Shown here: one piece after another, positions 50,150 to 58,828 of the stretch
Numbering within the stretch: the first letter of the stretch is position 1
How the letters are laid out: every line of letters starts with the position of its first letter
Assembly: GCF_021246445.1 (NCBI RefSeq)
Contig: NZ_JAJQXW010000001.1
Location: 1,382,168-1,446,167, forward strand
Source of the DNA: Rhabdothermincola salaria
GTDB taxonomy: Bacteria; Actinomycetota; Acidimicrobiia; Acidimicrobiales; Acidimicrobilacustridaceae
Direction of reading: 5' to 3'
Length of the DNA: 64,000 nt
Notes under the pieces: generated by a model
What the model was told of the DNA's origin: nothing
Database searches by the model: none
What the model saw: only the letters and a program-made list of their open reading frames with translations
Translations under genes and position numbers: made by a program

Positions 50150-50194
50150 CCGCAGGCACGGTCCGTCGGACCCACGCGCCCCTCGTCGAGCTCA

Positions 50195-50346
50195 CCCTCC
50201 ATCTGCCCGGCCCCGCCCGCATCGCGTCGGGCTCTCGGTGACGCGGCTCGACGACCGCCAGCCATTCGAGGCGACGGCTCGACGGCACGACGCGCGGACA
50301 ACGACCGTCCATGCATGGGATCACCTCCGTCTGGGCAGATGGAGGG
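50195..50346. repeat. 152-bp non-coding segment bounded by 14-bp perfect inverted repeats
   Basis: CCCTCCATCTGCCC at 50195-50208 and GGGCAGATGGAGGG at 50333-50346. Confidence 0.55.
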
Positions 50347-50389
50347 CACCACCCCGAACCGGGTTGCGGCGCACGCTGCACCACCGGTG

Positions 50390-50416
50390 GGAATGACGCC
50401 GGGGCCCTGGTGGTTG
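50390..50416 (+). promoter_or_regulatory. SigH/SigR-type ECF promoter GGAAT-N18-GTTG
   Basis: GGAAT at 50390-50394, GTTG at 50413-50416, exact 18-nt spacer. Confidence 0.65.
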
Positions 50417-50452
50417 TAAGGGTCACGAACCAAGGGGAGGAAAAGAGTCCCG

Positions 50453-50680
50453 ATGGACACCGCTCGACACACCACTCAAGACGCGACCGAGGCCGCCGCG
50501 AGCCGCGAGGTCGCCGGCCTGCGCAGCCGAGCCACGAGCCTGCGCCACCAGGCCGACGCACTCGACGACGTCCTGGCGGTGACCTACCGCCGGCGAGCCA
50601 GCGAGCTCGAGATGGAGGCGTGGATCCTCGAGGTCCAGTTCGGTCTCACCGTCACCGAGGCGCACCCCAGCGCCGCCTGA
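50453..50680 (+). CDS. Small hypothetical helical protein, 75 aa
   Basis: Strong RBS AAGGGGAGG, high-GC3 codons, upstream promoter; no family recognised. Confidence 0.78.
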   Translation: MDTARHTTQDATEAAASREVAGLRSRATSLRHQADALDDVLAVTYRRRASELEMEAWILEVQFGLTVTEAHPSAA

Positions 50681-50687
50681 CCCCCCA

Positions 50688-50797
50688 CCGGAGCGGATGG
50701 GCCCCACCCCCCACCGACATCTGCTCCGGGTCTGCGCCGTGGCTCCCCCTCCACGAGCGCTTGCGATGCCCGCCCCTCCCCCCGGGGCGGGCATCGT
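50688..50797 (+). ncRNA. 6C-like RNA with three C-rich-loop hairpins
   Basis: Stems 50688-50699/50718-50729 (loop contains CCCCACCCCCC), 50734-50742/50751-50760 (loop CTCCCCCT), 50763-50776/50784-50797 (loop TCCCCCC). Confidence 0.7.
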
Positions 50798-50811
50798 CGC
50801 GTCTGGCCAGC

Positions 50812-50835
50812 CGGCACGGCACGGCACGGCACGGC
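50812..50835. repeat. (CGGCA)n pentanucleotide tandem repeat, about 4.8 copies
   Basis: CGGCACGGCACGGCACGGCACGGC. Confidence 0.85.
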
Positions 50836-50927
50836 GGCTACGAGCGTGCCCACGGCCCGAGCGAGTCACCTACGATCGCTCGGGCGCGCCGACGGCCGGC
50901 GCCGCCGACCTCAGCCAGGAGCGCACC

Positions 50928-51797
50928 GTGGCATACCCCAAGGACATCCCCATCGTCGAGACCTTCGTGGGCATGCCCAGCCGGAACCGCAAGGAGGTCT
51001 ACAAGTTCCTGGCACCACACCTGCGCGACGAGGGCTCCAAGGAGATGCGGTTCCCGGCCCAGTACATGTTCAAGGACGTGCCCGGCGACCTCGACGAGAG
51101 CGTCGACCCGGTGGCCCTGCTCATCGACAACCTCGATCGCTACAACATCGAGGTGGCCATGCTCGGCCTGGGCCTCAACGACATCAACCCGGATTCGGCC
51201 CGGGCCATCGAAGAGCACCCGGACCGGTTCGTCACCTGCGTCGAGTTCGACCCCAACGACACCATGGCTGCCATCCGCAAGATCCGCGACATGGTGGAGC
51301 GCTTCCCGGTGCGAGGAGTGAGCACTTTCCCGGCCGGCTACCGGGTGCCGCTGAACGACAAGAAGATGTACCCGCTCTACGCCCTGTGCGTGGAGCTCGA
51401 CCTGCCCATCTTCGTGTGCGTCGGCATCCCGGGCCCCCGTGTGCCCTTCGCCCCCCAGCACGTCGAGCTCATCGACGAGGTCATGTACGACTTCCCTGAG
51501 CTCACCTTCGTCATGCGCCACGGAGCCCAGCCGTGGACCGAGCTGGCCATGAAGCTCATGCTCAAGTGGCCGAACCTCTACTACTCCACCTCGGCCTTCG
51601 CCCCGAAGCACTACGACAAGGTGATCATCGACTACGCCAACACCCGCGGCGCCGACAAGATCATCTACGCCGGCTACTTCCCCGCCGGGCTGTCCTACGA
51701 GCGGATCTTCAACGACATGGAGAACGTGCCCTTCAAGGACCACGTGTGGCCCAAGTTCCTCCGCGAGAACGCCCTGAAGGTCCTCAAGCTCGGTTGA
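50928..51797 (+). CDS. Amidohydrolase family protein (Amidohydro_2)
   Basis: YPLYALCVELDLPI, FPELTFVMRHG, WPNLYYSTSA; AGGAG RBS before GTG. Confidence 0.9.
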   Translation: MAYPKDIPIVETFVGMPSRNRKEVYKFLAPHLRDEGSKEMRFPAQYMFKDVPGDLDESVDPVALLIDNLDRYNIEVAMLGLGLNDINPDSARAIEEHPDRFVTCVEFDPNDTMAAIRKIRDMVERFPVRGVSTFPAGYRVPLNDKKMYPLYALCVELDLPIFVCVGIPGPRVPFAPQHVELIDEVMYDFPELTFVMRHGAQPWTELAMKLMLKWPNLYYSTSAFAPKHYDKVIIDYANTRGADKIIYAGYFPAGLSYERIFNDMENVPFKDHVWPKFLRENALKVLKLG

Positions 51798-51814: not shown

Positions 51815-52918
51815 CTACTTGGCCAGCTTGATGGCATAGACCCCGCCCACACCGACCGGCCCCCCACCGGTGATGCCTCCCTCGACCTGCCCACCGACGA
51901 GGTAGCCGCAGAACTTGGGGTTGGGGGTACCGAGGTCCTCGCACGGGCCCTTGTCCGCACCGTTTCCGAGTGAGTAGACCTCGAACACCGAGAACCCCAC
52001 GATGTAGACCTCGGCGTTGCTGCCGGTGCCTCGGGCGTTGCTGGCCAGCGGCACCACCATGAGGCACCCGTCGAATGTCAGGGTGTTGGCCGGGCAGGCA
52101 TCGGAGCCCAGGACGGGCGTGAAGTCGCCACTGAGCGGGTCGGGATCGTCGTTGCCGGTGTCGGTGCCGGTCCACTCACCCACGATCGCGGGATCGCCGT
52201 CGCCCTTGCCCTTGAACGTGTTCGAACCACCGTCGCAGCGCTTGAAGGTCTCCGTGTTGCCCCCGCCCGGGTCCTGCAGCGGGTACAGGATGGACCCGAT
52301 GACCTCGGGCCGAACCTGGAGGTTCTGGTCGAGGATGTCGAAACCCCCCGAGTCGGCGACTCCGCACATGATGAAGGGGAACGTCGCCCCGGTGCCGACC
52401 AGGGGTTGGAGCGTGGCCGCCGCCTCGGTGCGGGCCGAGACGGTCTCGATGCCACCCACCTGGGCGAAGAACGTCTCCTTGTCCGCGCTCGTCTCCACCT
52501 CGACACCCGACGCTGACCCAGCGTTCGCCGATGCCCAGGTCGCCCCGGATCCGCAGATGTCGACCGGCGACCCGATCGGCAGCCGGCGCACCTGGTCGTC
52601 GACGAACCAGCACTTGAGCCGATCACCCGTCACGTCGGCACCATTGGCCTCGGCGACGGTGCGGACCTGGTCGGTCACGCTGCTCAGCCCGGGTGCGGGC
52701 TGGGAACGCTGGGTGGCGAACGCCGCAGCTCCGGCCATGGCCGCCGCGTCCGAGGCGTTCTGCATCTGGCGACGGTTGGCGTAGGCCTGCCCCCCGTCGA
52801 TCGCCAGCGCAGCAACCAGGACCAGCGCCAGGGCGAAGCCAGCCACGAGTACCGCCGCGACACCTCGATCGTCCCGGTGGGTCCGGTTGGGGGTTCGTGG
52901 ACCAGGATTTGGCATCAT
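51815..52918 (-). CDS. TadG-like pilin-related protein (Tad N-terminus, Cys-rich C-terminal domain)
   Basis: DDRG|VAAVLV TM, AIDGG, RRQMQNASDAAAMAGA. Confidence 0.85.
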   Translation of the reverse strand: MMPNPGPRTPNRTHRDDRGVAAVLVAGFALALVLVAALAIDGGQAYANRRQMQNASDAAAMAGAAAFATQRSQPAPGLSSVTDQVRTVAEANGADVTGDRLKCWFVDDQVRRLPIGSPVDICGSGATWASANAGSASGVEVETSADKETFFAQVGGIETVSARTEAAATLQPLVGTGATFPFIMCGVADSGGFDILDQNLQVRPEVIGSILYPLQDPGGGNTETFKRCDGGSNTFKGKGDGDPAIVGEWTGTDTGNDDPDPLSGDFTPVLGSDACPANTLTFDGCLMVVPLASNARGTGSNAEVYIVGFSVFEVYSLGNGADKGPCEDLGTPNPKFCGYLVGGQVEGGITGGGPVGVGGVYAIKLAK

Positions 52919-52928
52919 CTGTCCGATC

Positions 52929-53828
52929 TCAGTTCGAGCCCATCGTGAACTGGTACTGGCCGATCACCACGTCGGTGCCGGTGAGGACCTGGAACTGGAC
53001 GACACCAGGGGTCCAGCCAGGGGCATTGCCCTGGGAGGGCTTGTGGTTCGCCGACCAGGTGTAGGCGTAGGTGTTCGGCGTGCTCTGCGGGTTCAGCTGT
53101 TGTGTCAGCGACGGTGGGTTCGTCCCGTCGGCGGTGTAGAAGATGCGGATCTTCGGGATGCCACACGACCCGTCGCCGTTGGTGACGATGTCGGCGATCG
53201 TCATCGCGCTGCGCAGCTGGCCGTTCGACTTGGCCGCGGCACCGGTGATGGTGGGGACGAGGTTCGTGCTCAGCTGACAGCCCGTCGACGGTGGTGCGGT
53301 GCTGGTCGTCGTCGAGGCCGGCGTGGTGGTGGACGTCGAGGCCGTGGTGGAGGTGGTGGGGGTGACCGTCACGGGCCCACCCACCAGCGTCATGGTGGAG
53401 GTGCTCTCGATGGTGGAGGGGACCAGAGGACCGAAGAAGGTGAGATCGGTGTGGGGCCACGAGACGGCGACCTCGATCGATCCGGTGATGGGGACGGTCG
53501 AGCACGCGGCGGCGGCTCCCGCCGTGGTGAGGCAGCGGACGTCGACCGACACGTTGTCCTGGCCGGCGAGGCGGGCATTGACCGCCGCCACGATCGCGTC
53601 GTTGTCGGCGCTGCCCACGATGTCTGCCTCGCGGTAGCCGAGGATGCCGACGCGGGCGCCATCGCGGGCCGCTGAGCTGGCCTGACCCTGCTGGAACTCC
53701 ACCAGGGAGAACTCGACGAAGCCGAGCAGCAGCGCGAGCAACAACGGGAGCACGAGCGCCGCCTCGACGATCACGGCCCCCTGCTCACCGACCGAGCGGC
53801 GCGACGACGTCGGGGCCCCGGCCGTCAC
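52929..53828 (-). CDS. TadE-like minor pilin with Thr-rich linker and extra C-terminal domain
   Basis: EQG|AVIVEAALVLP, AARDGAR, TTSTTASTSTTT linker. Confidence 0.85.
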   Translation of the reverse strand: MTAGAPTSSRRSVGEQGAVIVEAALVLPLLLALLLGFVEFSLVEFQQGQASSAARDGARVGILGYREADIVGSADNDAIVAAVNARLAGQDNVSVDVRCLTTAGAAAACSTVPITGSIEVAVSWPHTDLTFFGPLVPSTIESTSTMTLVGGPVTVTPTTSTTASTSTTTPASTTTSTAPPSTGCQLSTNLVPTITGAAAKSNGQLRSAMTIADIVTNGDGSCGIPKIRIFYTADGTNPPSLTQQLNPQSTPNTYAYTWSANHKPSQGNAPGWTPGVVQFQVLTGTDVVIGQYQFTMGSN

Positions 53829-54289
53829 CCCTGCACCGCCACTTCGGCCGAACCGTCGATCCCGAGCACCGAGCCGGTGAGGGCTCCGACCAGGGGGGTG
53901 ACGATCGGCATCTCGGTGGTGACCACGACCTCGAGGAGATCGCCCGACAGGGCGCTGCCGGAGCAGCCCGTCAGCTCGGTGATCACTCCCCCACGGTCTC
54001 GGAACACCTGGACCTCGACGTCGGCGCCGGGGCTCTCGGCCTGCACCTCGCCGACGATGTCGTCGCCCGACGAACACTCGACCCGGCCGGGGTGGAACTG
54101 GCCGTAGAAGGCACCCTCACGGGCCATGTTCGTGACCTGGTTCTGTAGTTGGTAGGCGCGGCCGAGGTCGATCGTGCCGAAGACCAACACGGCGAGGAAG
54201 GGCAGGAGCAGGGCGAACTCCACGAGCACGGCACCCGCGTCGTCACGAAGGCGTCGGCCCCCACGAGAGTCCTGGGACGGCTGCCCCAT
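53825..54289 (-). CDS. TadE family minor pilin
   Basis: DAG|AVLVEFALLLP, DLGR, AREGA; GGAAGGAAG RBS. Confidence 0.9.
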   Translation of the reverse strand: MGQPSQDSRGGRRLRDDAGAVLVEFALLLPFLAVLVFGTIDLGRAYQLQNQVTNMAREGAFYGQFHPGRVECSSGDDIVGEVQAESPGADVEVQVFRDRGGVITELTGCSGSALSGDLLEVVVTTEMPIVTPLVGALTGSVLGIDGSAEVAVQG

Positions 54290-54347
54290 GGATCACCACT
54301 TCCTTCCCGTCCAGCACGGCGAGGACCGTCCAGGCACCTCGGGAGGG

Positions 54348-54392
54348 AGTGTACACAACCTCAAGAAGCTCGACCACCCTCTGTGGTCGAGC
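54348..54392 (-). promoter_or_regulatory. Candidate promoter (-10 TACACT) with inverted repeat over the -35 region
   Basis: AGTGTA at 54348-54353; GCTCGACCAC-CCTCT-GTGGTCGAGC at 54368-54392. Confidence 0.45.
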
Positions 54393-54539
54393 AGAACTCA
54401 GCACTTGTCACGTGCGATCAGGTTGTCCAGGTGATGCGAGCCGATGGCTCACAGAGACCCTACCCGTTGGCGGCCCTCACCGGCGAGGCAACCGGGCGCG
54501 CCTCGAGCATGGTCCGGCCAGCGATCCTCGGCGCGCGGG

Positions 54540-56159
54540 TCAGCGCACCAGCGTCACGAACCGGTTCACGCCGATCTCGGACGGGGCCTCGGGGCCACCG
54601 AGGCCGCCGGGCAGCATGGTCTCGGGGAAGAAGAAGGCCTCGACCGACGTCTGGGGGGTGTTGGGGACATCGGGGTCGGTGGGGGAGAACCCGGCGTCCC
54701 ACACCGACCGGGCGTTGCCCAGGTTGAGGCGGTTGATGTAGATGGCCCTGAACTCGATGAAGCGGATCTGACCTGAACCGCCCGACGGGATCACGTCGGT
54801 CACCGGGGAGTACCCGAAACGAGGCGAGTACTGGATGTCGTAGAGGTCCGGTTCGTCGCCGCTGCTGTTGCGTGCGAAGACGGGAGCGGTGCACCCGCTG
54901 GCGCACTCGGGCGGCACGGGATCCTCCTCTTCCAGTTCACCGGGGAAGCCGTCCCAGGTACGACCCGAGTAGTGGTCGAAGCACCGCACGAGGAGGCCGA
55001 GGTACTTGTCCGACTGCTCGTCGAAGCCCTCAAGATGGGCCGCGACACCCGGATCGAGGTCGCCGTTGTCGGTCAGGTCGGTGTAGCGATTGCCCGAGTC
55101 ATCGAGGAACTGATCGCGTTTGCAGCTCGGAGGGATGTCGGCGAGCTGCGCCTCACCCGGCCCGTAGTTCTCGGGGATGAACCACCACAGCGGGGTGTTG
55201 TCGAGGTCGCGACCGTCGTAGGTGGTGATGCGGGGCGGGAGCACCGACCCCACACCGGCGTCGCGCTGCAACCGGGGCCCGTCGCCGTCGCGAAACTGCG
55301 CCGAGGACCCGGTCAGGAGGCCGTCGCGGACCTCGCTCGGCTGGTTGCCGGTGAAGTTCTCGGTGGCGTTGGGCGCCAGCGGACAGCCAGGGGAGATGTC
55401 GACCACGACGTTGGAGCCGTGGGGGTCACCGTTGTAGAGGCTGAGGTCGTGGTCGACGCCCGCCCCGGCGTTGTCGACGAGCATCGACTTCGCCTCGTTG
55501 ATGTTCCCGCCGACCTCGCAGGTCGGGGTGTGGTAGCTGAAGCGCAACGGAAAGAAGCTGCCAGTGGCGGGATCGCAGTCGGAGGGGCCGTCGGCCAGGA
55601 GGCAGTCGTAGCCGTTGGCCGCAACTCCCGTGGTGGTGAAGAAGGGCAGCACCCCGCCGAAGCCGGCCCCTTCGAGACCAGCGATGGCGAACGCCGAGTG
55701 ACGGTAGTCGCCGAGACCGACCACCCCGCCGAACGCCGTGGGATAGAAGCGGTCCGGGAGGCGGACGCGCACCTCTGAGCCCTCGTAGGAGATGCAACTG
55801 GCGCTCGCCGTCTGGCTCGCCAGCGCCGCGGGATCGGGGCGAGGGCAGCTGTTCCAGCCATCCGCACCATCGGGGATGGTCGTTCCGAGCGTGTCGTGGG
55901 CGTAGGTCTTGGCCGTGGCCACCATGGCGGCTTCGCCGTTGCGCAGGTCCTGCGCGGCGGCAAGGGCCGACACGTCGGCTGCCGTCTGGTCCTGGCGACG
56001 AGCGGCGTACACGCCACCCATGTCGACGGCGAACGCGGCGAAGATGATCAGCACGACGAGCATGAGGGCGACCAGGATCAGGGTGATGCCGGCGTCGTCT
56101 CGCAACCGGCGAGCGACGCCGTGGCGCGCCCCCCGAGCGGGTGTCGACCTGCGCCGCAT
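54540..56159 (-). CDS. Large TadG-like pilin-related protein (539 aa)
   Basis: DAG|ITLILVAL TM, AVDMG, RRQDQTAADVSALAAA; Cys/Asp-rich C-terminus ending VTLVR. Confidence 0.85.
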   Translation of the reverse strand: MRRRSTPARGARHGVARRLRDDAGITLILVALMLVVLIIFAAFAVDMGGVYAARRQDQTAADVSALAAAQDLRNGEAAMVATAKTYAHDTLGTTIPDGADGWNSCPRPDPAALASQTASASCISYEGSEVRVRLPDRFYPTAFGGVVGLGDYRHSAFAIAGLEGAGFGGVLPFFTTTGVAANGYDCLLADGPSDCDPATGSFFPLRFSYHTPTCEVGGNINEAKSMLVDNAGAGVDHDLSLYNGDPHGSNVVVDISPGCPLAPNATENFTGNQPSEVRDGLLTGSSAQFRDGDGPRLQRDAGVGSVLPPRITTYDGRDLDNTPLWWFIPENYGPGEAQLADIPPSCKRDQFLDDSGNRYTDLTDNGDLDPGVAAHLEGFDEQSDKYLGLLVRCFDHYSGRTWDGFPGELEEEDPVPPECASGCTAPVFARNSSGDEPDLYDIQYSPRFGYSPVTDVIPSGGSGQIRFIEFRAIYINRLNLGNARSVWDAGFSPTDPDVPNTPQTSVEAFFFPETMLPGGLGGPEAPSEIGVNRFVTLVR

Positions 56160-56617
56160 CACGGACACGCCTGAGATGCGACGGCCACGAACGTGGCGGG
56201 ACGTTCGAGGCGGCTCGTGGCCTCGCTCGTGAGGCTGGTGGGCAGGAACGGGTCGAGGAAGCCGGTGAGGCTGTCGACGCCCTGGGTCACCTCGACGGTC
56301 ACCGGGTCGCCTGTGGCGCTGCCGGCGCCGTCGAATCGGATCTCCACGGTGGACTCGTCGGGATTGGTGAGCCGATCGCAGGTCTCGGCCACGATCTCCG
56401 CGCTCTGCGCGCCGCCGGTGGCCCCGGCAGTGGACCGGTAGTTCACCGCCGTGAGCCGTGCCGACTCGCGGGCTCCGTGCCGCACGTCGAGGTACTGGCC
56501 GAAGGTCCACCCGAACTCGATGATGCCGAACAGGAGCAGGGCGAGGAACGGCAGGACGAGGGCGAACTCCACGAGGGCAGCGCCCTCGTCGTTGCGGGCT
56601 CGGGCTCGGCTCAACAT
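56159..56617 (-). CDS. TadE family minor pilin
   Basis: DEG|AALVEFALVLP, GIIEFG, GARESAR. Confidence 0.9.
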   Translation of the reverse strand: MLSRARARNDEGAALVEFALVLPFLALLLFGIIEFGWTFGQYLDVRHGARESARLTAVNYRSTAGATGGAQSAEIVAETCDRLTNPDESTVEIRFDGAGSATGDPVTVEVTQGVDSLTGFLDPFLPTSLTSEATSRLERPATFVAVASQACP

Positions 56618-57276
56618 GCCGATGCTCCGTCAGCCTTGTCCACCGAGTAGGTCACGGGGGCCTCGCCGTAGGTCACGTCGTCGCCGACGACATCGGTGAT
56701 CACCAGCTCCACGCGGCTGTCGTCCTTGGCCGGATCGCTGTTGCCGAAGGTGAGCTTCTGGCGGGAGATGACCACTTCGCCGCCCAGGTTGGAGGTGACC
56801 TCGACGTCGTCGGTGCCGGTCAACCCGCTCTGGCGGAACGTTCGCAACTCACCCAGCACCGTGACCCCCACGACCGGATCACCGGTGTTCTGGTCCACGA
56901 GGTCGAAGGTGAAGCGGGCCAGCCACTTCTTCGCACCGTTGTCGTCGTCCCAGCACGCCTGCACGTTCTGGATGGTGGCGATCGCCGTCCCGGGAAGGAC
57001 CGTCGTCACGCTGGAGGGAGGCGGTGGCGTGGAGGTGCCGGGAGAGAGACCAGCGTCGTCGACGTCGGGAGCCCCGACGCGGTTCGCCCGATCACTCAGC
57101 TCCGAGGAGCCCTCGTCGGTCACGTACTGGACCGCCCCGATGATCGCCACGACGACGACACCGACGATGAGGGCGTACTCGACGAGGCTGGCACCCCGGT
57201 CCCGCTCGGCGGTGCGCGAGGCGTCATCCCGGTGCCGCTTCGGGCCTCGAGGGGAGTTGGTCCAGGGGGTCCTCAC
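56611..57276 (-). CDS. Flp-type pilin N-terminus fused to a long C-terminal domain
   Basis: DRG|ASLVEYALIVGVVVVAIIGAV Flp motif, then Pro/Thr linker and beta-rich domain; start uncertain (57276 or 57297). Confidence 0.8.
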   Translation of the reverse strand: MRTPWTNSPRGPKRHRDDASRTAERDRGASLVEYALIVGVVVVAIIGAVQYVTDEGSSELSDRANRVGAPDVDDAGLSPGTSTPPPPSSVTTVLPGTAIATIQNVQACWDDDNGAKKWLARFTFDLVDQNTGDPVVGVTVLGELRTFRQSGLTGTDDVEVTSNLGGEVVISRQKLTFGNSDPAKDDSRVELVITDVVGDDVTYGEAPVTYSVDKADGASAC

Positions 57277-57317
57277 ATGACGAACATCGCCTGACACTGC
57301 CCGCGCGATACGGGCGG

Positions 57318-57346
57318 CACCGATCTCACTCTGAGTGAGATCGGTG
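57318..57346. promoter_or_regulatory. Perfect 29-bp palindrome with a BldD-box-like core
   Basis: CACCGATCTCACTC-T-GAGTGAGATCGGTG; core CTCACTCTGAGTGAG at 57325-57339. Confidence 0.55.
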
Positions 57347-57360
57347 GCCGGGACCCGGAC

Positions 57361-58191
57361 TCAGTCGGAAACGCCCTGGCCGCGACCCGGATCGGTGTCC
57401 GACGGGTTCCCACCACCCTGACCCGGAGCCGTCCCCGACGGATTCCCACCACCCTGACCAGGTGCGGTGCCCGACGGGTTCTCCCCGCCCTGACCCGGCG
57501 CCGTCACCGACGGGTTCTCCCCGCCCTGACCCGGCGCCGTCACCGACGGGTTCTCGCCACCCTGACCCGGCGCCGTCACCGACGGGTTCTCGCCACCCTG
57601 ACCCGGCGCCGTCACCGACGGGTTCTCGCCACCCTGGCCGGGCGCGGTCACCGACGGGTTCTCGCCACCCTGGCCGGGAGCCTCGCCGGTCAGGCCCGGA
57701 GCGTTCTCGGAGTTGCCCGGCCCACCACCCTCTTGCCCGGGTGCGTTCTCGGAGTTGCCCGGGGCGTCGCCGCCACGACCGGGGGCATCGTCGGACTGGC
57801 CACGAGGGATGTCGATGCCGAGCGGCTCGACGGCGTCGGAGACGAAGTCCTGGATGGGGGCCGGCAGCGAACCGGAGGCGGCGGCCACTCCCCCGCCGCC
57901 GAACACCAGCACCGCCGACGCGGCCACACCAGCCAACACGGCAGTGCGCTTGCGAGAACGGCGGGTGGCCAGCTCGTCGGGGCGGGCGGCGGCGATGAGG
58001 TCCCGCTCGGGGGCCTCGTGGCGCAGGATGCGACCGTCGGGGCCGGTGATCCGGGCCAGGTGGGCCCGCACGACGTCATCGGCTGGCGGCTGCGCGAAGG
58101 CCTCACGGACCGCGTCCGAGACACCACGCATGGTCGTCTCGTCGAGTCCCGAGTCGCCCTCGTCGCGCCGCCGTGGCGTCTCTTCGGCCAT
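57361..58191 (-). CDS. Putative anti-sigma factor: single TM with repetitive extracytoplasmic tail
   Basis: Directly downstream of the ECF sigma; RRSRKR then TM helix, then Gly/Pro/Asn repeats. Confidence 0.72.
   Translation of the reverse strand: MAEETPRRRDEGDSGLDETTMRGVSDAVREAFAQPPADDVVRAHLARITGPDGRILRHEAPERDLIAAARPDELATRRSRKRTAVLAGVAASAVLVFGGGGVAAASGSLPAPIQDFVSDAVEPLGIDIPRGQSDDAPGRGGDAPGNSENAPGQEGGGPGNSENAPGLTGEAPGQGGENPSVTAPGQGGENPSVTAPGQGGENPSVTAPGQGGENPSVTAPGQGGENPSVTAPGQGGENPSGTAPGQGGGNPSGTAPGQGGGNPSDTDPGRGQGVSD
57394..57681 (-). repeat. Eight in-frame 36-bp tandem repeats (APGQGGENPSVT and variants)
   Basis: 5x APGQGGENPSVT, then APGQGGENPSGT, APGQGGGNPSGT, APGQGGGNPSDT. Confidence 0.95.
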
Positions 58192-58267
58192 CACGCCACC
58201 ACCATCGTCGTCAGCAACACTTTCGATACGGCCACGGGACGCGTTCGGCGACGAAGGGCCATCCGGC

Positions 58268-58828
58268 TCATGTCTCGTCCCCCAGGCTGTCGGCCATCTG
58301 GCGTCCCATGGTGGCGACGGCGCGGCGCAGCAGCGCCTTCACCGCCGGCTCGCCCTTGCCCACGATGTCGGCGATGTCGGCGATGGGCAGGTCGGCCAGG
58401 ACCCGGAGCAGCAGGACGGACCGCTGATCGGGGGTGAGGCGGTCGACCGCGGCGATCACGTTCTGCACCCGAAGCCGTGACATGGCATCGGCCTCACCGT
58501 CGCCGCCGGCGCCCAAGGCGCCCTCCATCACCTCGGCGTCCATCGGCGCCTCCGGGCGCCGCCCCCGTCGGCGCCGCTCGTCGACCACCCGGCGGTGGGC
58601 GATCGTGAACAACCACCCTCGGAAGGCGTCCTCGTCGCCCTCGAAGTGCGCCAGGTTGCGCACCATCGACACGAACACCTCCGAGACCACGTCCTCGGGG
58701 TCGGAGATGCCCTGCGCCCGCACGTAGCCCAGCACCCGCGGCACGGAGTCGACGTACAGACGGGTGACGGCGTCGTCGCTGCCGGACTTGGCGGCCGCCA
58801 GAACCGACTCGAAGTCGTCGCCGATCAC
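58268..58828 (-). CDS. ECF RNA polymerase sigma factor
   Basis: Region 2 EDVVSEVF..FRGWLFTIAHRR; region 4 LTPDQRSVLLLR..IADIVGK..AVKALLRRA. Confidence 0.93.
   Translation of the reverse strand: MIGDDFESVLAAAKSGSDDAVTRLYVDSVPRVLGYVRAQGISDPEDVVSEVFVSMVRNLAHFEGDEDAFRGWLFTIAHRRVVDERRRRGRRPEAPMDAEVMEGALGAGGDGEADAMSRLRVQNVIAAVDRLTPDQRSVLLLRVLADLPIADIADIVGKGEPAVKALLRRAVATMGRQMADSLGDET

Follow-up and report, generated by a model that had tools for sequence, protein, structure and literature searches.

Behind a short open reading frame (ORF) in the genome of Rhabdothermincola salaria, three hairpins with cytosine-rich loops follow the stop codon almost immediately. What are these hairpins doing at the end of a small-protein gene, and to which class of RNA do they belong? 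We address this question in a 64,000-nt stretch of contig NZ_JAJQXW010000001.1 (assembly GCF_021246445.1; 1,382,168-1,446,167), hereafter the window, to whose positions the coordinates below refer. The answer that we favour, with moderate confidence, is that the locus is a single transcription unit giving a stress-induced mRNA, the 3′ untranslated region (UTR) of which would be a 6C-like anti-Shine-Dalgarno RNA, an analogue of the CcaF1-CcsR system of Rhodobacter.

To our knowledge, no small RNAs of Actinobacteria are better conserved than the 6C type, and every known 6C gene stands alone behind a housekeeping promoter. At this locus, a 6C-like RNA sits in the 3′ UTR of a conserved small-protein gene, apparently under a promoter of the thiol-stress class of extracytoplasmic function (ECF) sigma factors. 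If this is true, the locus would give a SigH/SigR-type regulon a post-transcriptional arm, would be the first case in the phylum of the alphaproteobacterial design of a small protein plus an anti-Shine-Dalgarno RNA, and would define a so far unnamed family of small proteins comprising at least 240 sequence clusters. The elements of the locus are as follows:

50389..50416, + strand: putative ECF-type promoter GGGAAT(-35)-N17-GGTTG(-10), SigH/SigR-like class, read from the sequence and a conserved motif
50389-50394 and 50412-50416, + strand: the -35 element GGGAAT and the -10 element GGTTG of this promoter, from the sequence
50432..50440, + strand: Shine-Dalgarno sequence AAGGGGAGG, 12 nt before the ATG at 50453
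50453..50680, + strand: gene for a 75-aa protein of an unnamed family, from ATG 50453 to TGA 50678-50680
50681..50689, + strand: unpaired C-run CCCCCCACC right after the stop codon, from sequence and fold
50690..50727, + strand: hairpin H1 with the 18-nt loop GGCCCCACCCCCCACCGA (50700-50717), from the fold
50734..50760, + strand: hairpin H2 with the loop CUCCCCCU (50743-50750), from the fold; matches the first hairpin of the Rfam 6C model
50763..50805, + strand: hairpin H3 (50763-50797) with the loop UCCCCCC (50777-50783), then the tail GUCGCGU; matches the second hairpin of the 6C model

The promoter had been given as GGAAT-N18-GTTG in a preliminary description of the locus; that string is present at 50390-50416 and is better written GGGAAT-N17-GGTTG, and the ribosome-binding site and 75-aa ORF described with it were both found. 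We infer a transcription start near 50422-50424. The first hairpin begins 7-9 nt after the stop codon, and H3 is likely to be an intrinsic terminator. Neither a sigma-70-like promoter nor a U-tailed terminator was found within 50150-50950.

The 133 nt from the stop codon onwards fold on the + strand at -71.4 kcal/mol (z -4.61), and none of 200 shuffled sequences folds as well; on the - strand of the same stretch z is -2.18 and 4 of 200 shuffles are as good. In the genus and in several neighbouring genera, a C-run and then three hairpins stand behind the stop codon, with UYCCCCCU or UCCCCCC as loops on completely different stems. The H2 stems of five loci (L001, L005, L007, L011 and L040), for example, are wholly unlike one another, yet all of them carry the loop UYCCCCCU. 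We trained a covariance model, R1, on six of these three-hairpin RNAs. Among 47 distinct ORF loci (the set left after removal of duplicates, the window's own locus included), R1 matches behind the ORF, in the same orientation, in 15 at E <= 0.01; the training set accounts for six of these. In the resulting 15-sequence alignment, itself fitted to the model, the paired fraction of cells is 91.2%, compared with 37.9-45.7% when the partners are slid, and compensatory changes occur in 20 of the 30 pairs, compared with 8.0 +/- 1.7 in shuffles; the observed values were reached by none of 500 shuffles. H1 shows compensatory changes in all 8 of its pairs, with 78.8% of cells paired, and H3 in 8 of 13 pairs, with 98.4% paired. 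The G-U pairs of the alignment fit the ORF strand. The three C-loop hairpins of the preliminary description are, then, present, conserved and covarying on the strand of the ORF, with one correction: six consecutive Cs occur in the loops of H1 and H3, and the H2 loop CUCCCCCU has five rather than the six it had been credited with. The run varies from four to seven Cs in relatives.

The RNA also keeps company with the ORF. When whole genomes were searched with R1, this genome and all five of the relatives covered each had a single strong copy, and in every case it stood behind the ORF. In a count of local folds, at least one C-run-loop hairpin lies within 220 nt of the stop codon in 22 of the 47 loci, and the density of such hairpins past the stop is 0.74 per 220 nt compared with 0.053 elsewhere in the same loci, an enrichment of about 14-fold. 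The linkage of ORF and RNA, which the preliminary description had put forward as a check in relatives, is partial: these 22 loci have it, and the other 25 lack such hairpins. A comparison of C-loop with G-loop hairpin counts was discarded as uninformative, since the two strands mirror each other.

We scored the promoter as a strict motif, GGGA[AC]N-N17-[CG]GTT[GC], and in a loose form, in the 46 loci with enough upstream DNA, and took expectations from shuffles. The strict motif lies upstream of the ORF in 17 of these loci (0.10 expected) and the loose motif in 31 (1.96 expected); where a start could be assigned (14 loci), the distance from the end of the motif to that start is 30-43 nt in 9. 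Within the 64-kb window the pattern matches once against an expectation of 0.33, and one or more matches appear in 31 of 100 shuffles. The pattern alone is not beyond chance in the window, and its weight comes from its conservation.

As to the sigma factor class, we take GGAAT-N18-GTT to be the SigR/SigH consensus. Elsewhere in the same genome, the strict motif stands directly before an ECF sigma gene (Sigma70_r2/r4) whose stop codon overlaps the start of a zf-HC2 (HxxxCxxC) anti-sigma gene, and directly before genes for TrxB-like Pyr_redox_2, glutaredoxin, thioredoxin-like AhpC-TSA, DUF427 and PNPOx proteins. One sigma factor of this genome scores just under the SigH cut-off (TIGR02947, 246.6 bits; cut-off 251.55), and the gene after it encodes an RsrA-type anti-sigma factor (72.9 bits; cut-off 62.5); the 500 nt upstream of this best SigH orthologue hold no copy of the motif. 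The conservation of the motif and its placement before a sigma/anti-sigma operon and redox genes support the assignment of the promoter, from its sequence, to the SigH/SigR-type thiol-stress class, that is, to ECF sigma factors controlled by a zinc-binding anti-sigma factor (ZAS), in agreement with the promoter class first proposed. The likeness to the SigR/SigH regulons of Streptomyces, Mycobacterium and Corynebacterium includes the form of the promoter, the motif before a sigma/anti-sigma operon and before thioredoxin-system genes, and the presence of an RsrA-type anti-sigma factor. We know of no small protein of this family and no 3′-UTR C-loop RNA in those regulons, and a literature search for SigH- or SigR-dependent, UTR-derived small RNAs gave nothing actinobacterial among the best 12 of 416 matches.

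Apart from the locus studied, five strict motif sites fall within 9 kb (G000:C2:236300-245400, outside the window) around a second ECF sigma/zf-HC2 anti-sigma operon, and two of them stand back to back at 236764 (-) and 236773 (+). Judged by its motifs and genes, this region looks like a local regulon island with a thioredoxin-like gene.

Several lines of sequence evidence support the 75-aa ORF as a real small-protein gene. Its GC content by codon position (0.74/0.54/0.88) is like that of the neighbouring genes. A DNA search of 41 related genomes gave matches in 21, including 16 of 24 of the same family, and tblastn placed the protein in 14 further loci, in each of which a GGAGG-type site precedes the assigned start. 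In an alignment of 14 orthologues, 15 residues of the core LRxRAxSLRxQA...YRRRA(S/A)ELExEA never vary, and the pairwise codon differences by position are 0.34/0.28/0.45. The protein had been called an orphan, a label that does not survive a wider search: a family profile run against 1.84 billion representatives retrieved 240 proteins (representative clusters) at E <= 1e-3, of which 68 reach E <= 1e-10. Lengths range from 38 to 164 aa among the best 150 listed of these 240. No Pfam or NCBIfam family matches the protein family, and the only public name seen for its members is "hypothetical protein".

In these searches the family appears to be confined to genomes of the Acidimicrobiales type. A scan of GTDB species genomes gave 43 loci, all but one in genomes titled as Acidimicrobiales, Acidimicrobiia, Actinomycetes or Actinomycetota types (for example Iamiaceae, Microthrixaceae and Rhabdothermincola). 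Of 401 genomes chosen to sample the phylum, 3 have a strong match to the ORF profile, all of them in family f1; 4 marginal matches lie inside long frames. One ORF locus (L055) lies on an 8.5-kb contig of a metagenome-assembled genome titled Gammaproteobacteria, which is likely a case of mis-binning.

AlphaFold2 (81 sequences; predicted local distance difference test score, pLDDT, 88.2) places helices at residues 3-35 and 39-63, followed by a disordered tail. The protein is thus predicted to be a two-helix hairpin with the conserved YRRRA(S/A)ELE core and a disordered tail that ends in Ala-Ala. Foldseek gave no match in the PDB at E <= 1e-3, a wide structure search with VIA-align returned generic helical hairpins only (Z <= 8.6), and no match in the ESM Atlas reached 0.9. 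The C-terminal Ala-Ala is found in 105 of the 150 best-listed family members and in 38 of the 47 loci, where composition would lead one to expect 3.6%. It is a possible signal for rapid turnover, because it resembles what we take to be the rule for ClpXP-type C-terminal degrons.

Is the RNA then a 6C RNA? By the description of Weinberg et al., 6C has two hairpins with loops of at least six Cs on covarying stems and usually lies 200-300 nt from partitioning or pilus genes (PMC1950547). A search with the Rfam 6C model (RF01066) in gathering mode gave no match here. Ranked by E-value instead, the model matches H2 and H3 over its whole length (1-75; 50733-50802) with 29.4 bits (E 0.087 for the region), under the gathering cut-off of 47 bits, and this is the best match in the whole 3.9-Mb genome (E 0.11). 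The same cut-off is reached by none of 151 genomes of the class, the best of which scores 43.1 bits, and by 6 of 151 genomes in a sample of the phylum, some at only 47-48 bits. Conversely, of 7 canonical 6C loci, 6 have an R1 match at the site that Rfam assigns to 6C (E 7e-4 to 0.08). Canonical loci carry TATAGT-like boxes upstream, and no ORF of this family precedes any of 13 6C or near-6C loci.

The likeness to 6C (B11 in mycobacteria, cgb_03605 in Corynebacterium glutamicum) consists of the occurrence in Actinomycetota, G+C-rich hairpins, C-run loops and covarying stems. To this may be added that one drawing of the Mycobacterium tuberculosis RNA gives it three loops, as here, with L2 and L3 conserved (PMC6486639). 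The difference lies in the layout: here the RNA follows a conserved ORF by 7-9 nt, with an ECF-type motif upstream, whereas 6C is stand-alone with a housekeeping promoter, which in C. glutamicum depends on SigA/SigB and gave no signal with SigH or SigE (PMC5014011). We rejected the nearby pilus genes as evidence of 6C orthology: the window has a TadG-like gene some 1 kb from the RNA, but this neighbourhood is not conserved, with Tad genes near the ORF in 2-3 of 47 loci, a count limited by the 1.5-kb flanks of L002-L015. A full-text literature search combining "Acidimicrobi" with "6C RNA" found nothing. On the sequence comparison the RNA is best termed 6C-like, and we do not file it as a 6C member because its 29.4 bits are under the cut-off, its layout is linked to an ORF and the stem of H3 is generic; these comparisons do not establish membership in 6C.

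The closest architectural parallel comes from another phylum. In Rhodobacter, an RpoHI/HII promoter drives the gene for CcaF1, a 71-aa DUF1127 protein, and the 3′ UTR of this gene contains the CcsR RNAs, hairpins with anti-Shine-Dalgarno loops. RNase E cuts these RNAs out, the CcaF1 protein binds them, and they have a role in oxidative stress (PMC8034643). With CcaF1-CcsR1-4 (the "cuckoo" RNAs, ar14/CcsR1), as described there, the R. salaria locus would share a gene of about 70 aa, a stress sigma promoter, 3′-UTR hairpins with anti-Shine-Dalgarno loops and a terminator, all of which we read here from the sequence, and in both systems the association of ORF and RNA is patchy across relatives. 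The ar14 model gives a weak match over all three hairpins (19.5 bits, E 0.26, against a cut-off of 58.8). The differences are equally clear. The loops are C-runs here and CCUCCUCCC there; the sigma factor would be of ECF type here and is RpoHI/HII there; the present protein is not of the DUF1127 family, which is absent from the Pfam matches of the window protein and of 9 relatives at E <= 1; and RNase E processing and protein-RNA binding are demonstrated features of that system (PMC8034643) and hypothetical ones of this locus. The analogy drawn in the preliminary description is supported as one of architecture.

Put together, the favoured reading would run as follows. Thiol-oxidative stress would free a SigH/SigR-like ECF sigma factor from its zinc anti-sigma factor, and this sigma factor would start transcription about 30 nt before the ORF. 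The mRNA would encode the helical-hairpin protein of about 70 aa, and its structured 3′ UTR would consist of the three hairpins, with H3 as terminator. A C-run that resembles an anti-Shine-Dalgarno sequence is displayed by every hairpin and also by the short stretch between the stop codon and H1, and the 3′ UTR could act while attached to the mRNA or after being cut off as a stable RNA of about 110 nt. Its C-loops may pair with the G-rich ribosome-binding sites of other mRNAs and lower their translation, the mode of action shown for 6C in mycobacteria (PMC6486639). The RNA would in this way add the post-transcriptional arm to the thiol-stress regulon. Dependence on the sigma factor, co-transcription, processing, action in trans on targets and the role of the protein are what we infer from this arrangement.

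A number of our own results weigh against it. Besides the 6C score, which is short of the cut-off and part of which may come from generic G+C-rich terminators, the alignment behind the covariation counts is fitted to the model and has one hairpin dropped in 8 of its 15 rows. No C-loop hairpin follows the ORF in 25 of the 47 loci, including low-G+C relatives in which an amidohydrolase gene comes directly after the ORF. Promoter and hairpins do not co-vary across loci either (both in 15, the promoter only in 16, the hairpins only in 6 and neither in 9), and the ORF would therefore work without the RNA in many relatives; judged by this distribution, the RNA is an accessory of the 3′ UTR of the ORF and not an obligate part. 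The strict promoter motif occurs 20 times genome-wide, no more than base composition predicts (about 26, a hand estimate), and among these sites only the placement before redox genes is telling. Either of the genome's two ZAS-controlled ECF sigma factors (G000:C2:688941-689495 and C2:236823-237365) may read the promoter. Expression evidence is nearly nil: short metatranscriptome contigs from relatives in two studies cover 50442-50608 and 50525-50705, and such contigs cannot show a transcript, its ends or co-transcription. Contigs from 2 RNA and 2 DNA sequencing runs together cover 50352-50705 only, the uncovered remainder being uninformative, and no sequencing run contains half of the sequence words of the locus.

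The alternative that best withstands these data is that the hairpins are only a terminator and a 3′-end protection for the small-protein mRNA, with C-loops that reflect composition or terminator efficiency and have no role in trans. It gains from the missing match at the Rfam cut-off and from the 25 loci without C-loop hairpins, and most directly from H3, whose stem and tail UCGYCGCGU belong to a recurrent G+C-rich terminator type lacking a U-tract, with 27 strong instances genome-wide compared with 1 for a control motif of the same composition. However, only one of these 27 terminators has a C-run loop, and that one is H3 itself. Three hairpins exceed what termination needs, and the loops stay C-rich while the stems change completely. 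Clusters of at least two hairpins with C5 loops number just 4 in the whole genome, and the two strong ones are the locus studied and a stand-alone small-RNA gene. Together with the roughly 14-fold enrichment of C-loop hairpins past the stop codon, these points make a terminator without further function unlikely in our view, though it is the rival that we take most seriously.

A second alternative, which we consider improbable, is that the loops act in cis, pairing either with the ORF's own ribosome-binding site in negative feedback, as the preliminary description had proposed, or with the start region of the downstream amidohydrolase gene. The complementarity is real: GGGGAGG at 50434-50440 can pair with CCUCCCC in H3 and with CUCCCC in H2, with predicted duplexes of -11.5 and -12.6 kcal/mol, respectively. 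Autoregulation by 3′-UTR-derived small RNAs has been described in enterobacteria (PMC7398697), and the amidohydrolase gene is next after the ORF in 29 of the 47 loci. Yet duplexes as good or better are predicted at 13.8% (H3) and 12.6% (H2) of 2298 putative starts, the minimum-energy fold of the whole predicted transcript retains the three hairpins, unpaired with the ribosome-binding site, and relatives have ordinary GGAGG-type sites. The pairing first highlighted is unexceptional, at the 13th percentile of the putative starts. With about 13% of these starts predicted to do as well or better, nothing sets the ORF's own site apart, and feedback on it is, on these predictions, possible but not specific.

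A third view, in which the RNA merely abuts the ORF and is a separate small-RNA gene transcribed from a promoter of its own in the ORF's 3′ end, is very improbable: canonical 6C is stand-alone with housekeeping promoters (TATAGT-like boxes in the canonical loci; PMC5014011) and this genome does hold a second, stand-alone C-loop RNA beside a LysR gene, but only 7-9 nt separate the stop codon from H1, no sigma-70-like promoter was found within 50150-50950, and the strong copy stands directly behind the ORF in this genome and in all 5 relatives searched genome-wide.

The second C-loop RNA lies outside the window at G000:C1:~122960-123085 (+) (equivalent to L098:~1465-1590). It has three hairpins, each with the loop UCCCCCCU, and a U-tailed terminator. 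A TTGGAC-N17-TCACAAT box stands upstream, there is no ORF, and a divergently oriented LysR gene (HTH_1 + LysR_substrate) lies beside the RNA. Conservation extends to 8 of 26 relatives, a count that includes this genome and all 4 other genomes of the genus. If our reading of the ORF-linked RNA is true, there would be two differently wired C-loop RNAs in this one genome, one stand-alone and paired with LysR, the other driven by a sigma factor and linked to the ORF.

Returning to the stress-induced mRNA with a 6C-like 3′ UTR, a more speculative extension concerns the small protein, and we rate it as doubtful. The protein might be a dedicated partner of the RNA from its own 3′ UTR, with the arginine-rich (YRRRA) hairpin binding or maturing the C-loop RNA or complexes of loops and targets, and with fast removal by way of Ala-Ala. 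A thiol-stress sigma factor would then launch a self-limiting pulse of protein plus small RNA that damps the translation of mRNAs with G-rich ribosome-binding sites, and the locus would be a convergent actinobacterial counterpart of CcaF1-CcsR assembled from unrelated parts.

Upstream of the locus, on the same strand, lie a CoA-transferase gene and an LPG_synthase_TM gene. Downstream, an Amidohydro_2 gene is followed by a minus-strand TadE/TadG/Flp cluster and an ECF sigma gene. In its longest form the Amidohydro_2 frame (50697-51797) opens at ATG 50697, which would make it run across the three hairpins; comparison with relatives, together with an AGGAG site, indicates that the gene really starts at GTG 50928. 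Between the H3 terminator and this gene, CACGG is repeated four times in tandem (50815-50834). The cluster further downstream (51815-58828, - strand) holds TadG-like, TadE-like and Flp-pilin-like genes, then a 277-aa ORF without a family, then the ECF sigma gene, whose nearest family is BldN (102 bits, below the cut-off).

One further element was seen in relatives and is absent from the window. The palindrome TAGAAC-N2-GTTCTA occurs between the ORF/RNA and the next gene in 17 of the 47 loci, compared with 8 occurrences in the other 267 kb, and lies 94-470 nt past the ORF stop codon in, for example, L008, L015, L023, L029 and L046. It presumably resembles a KstR-type TetR operator.

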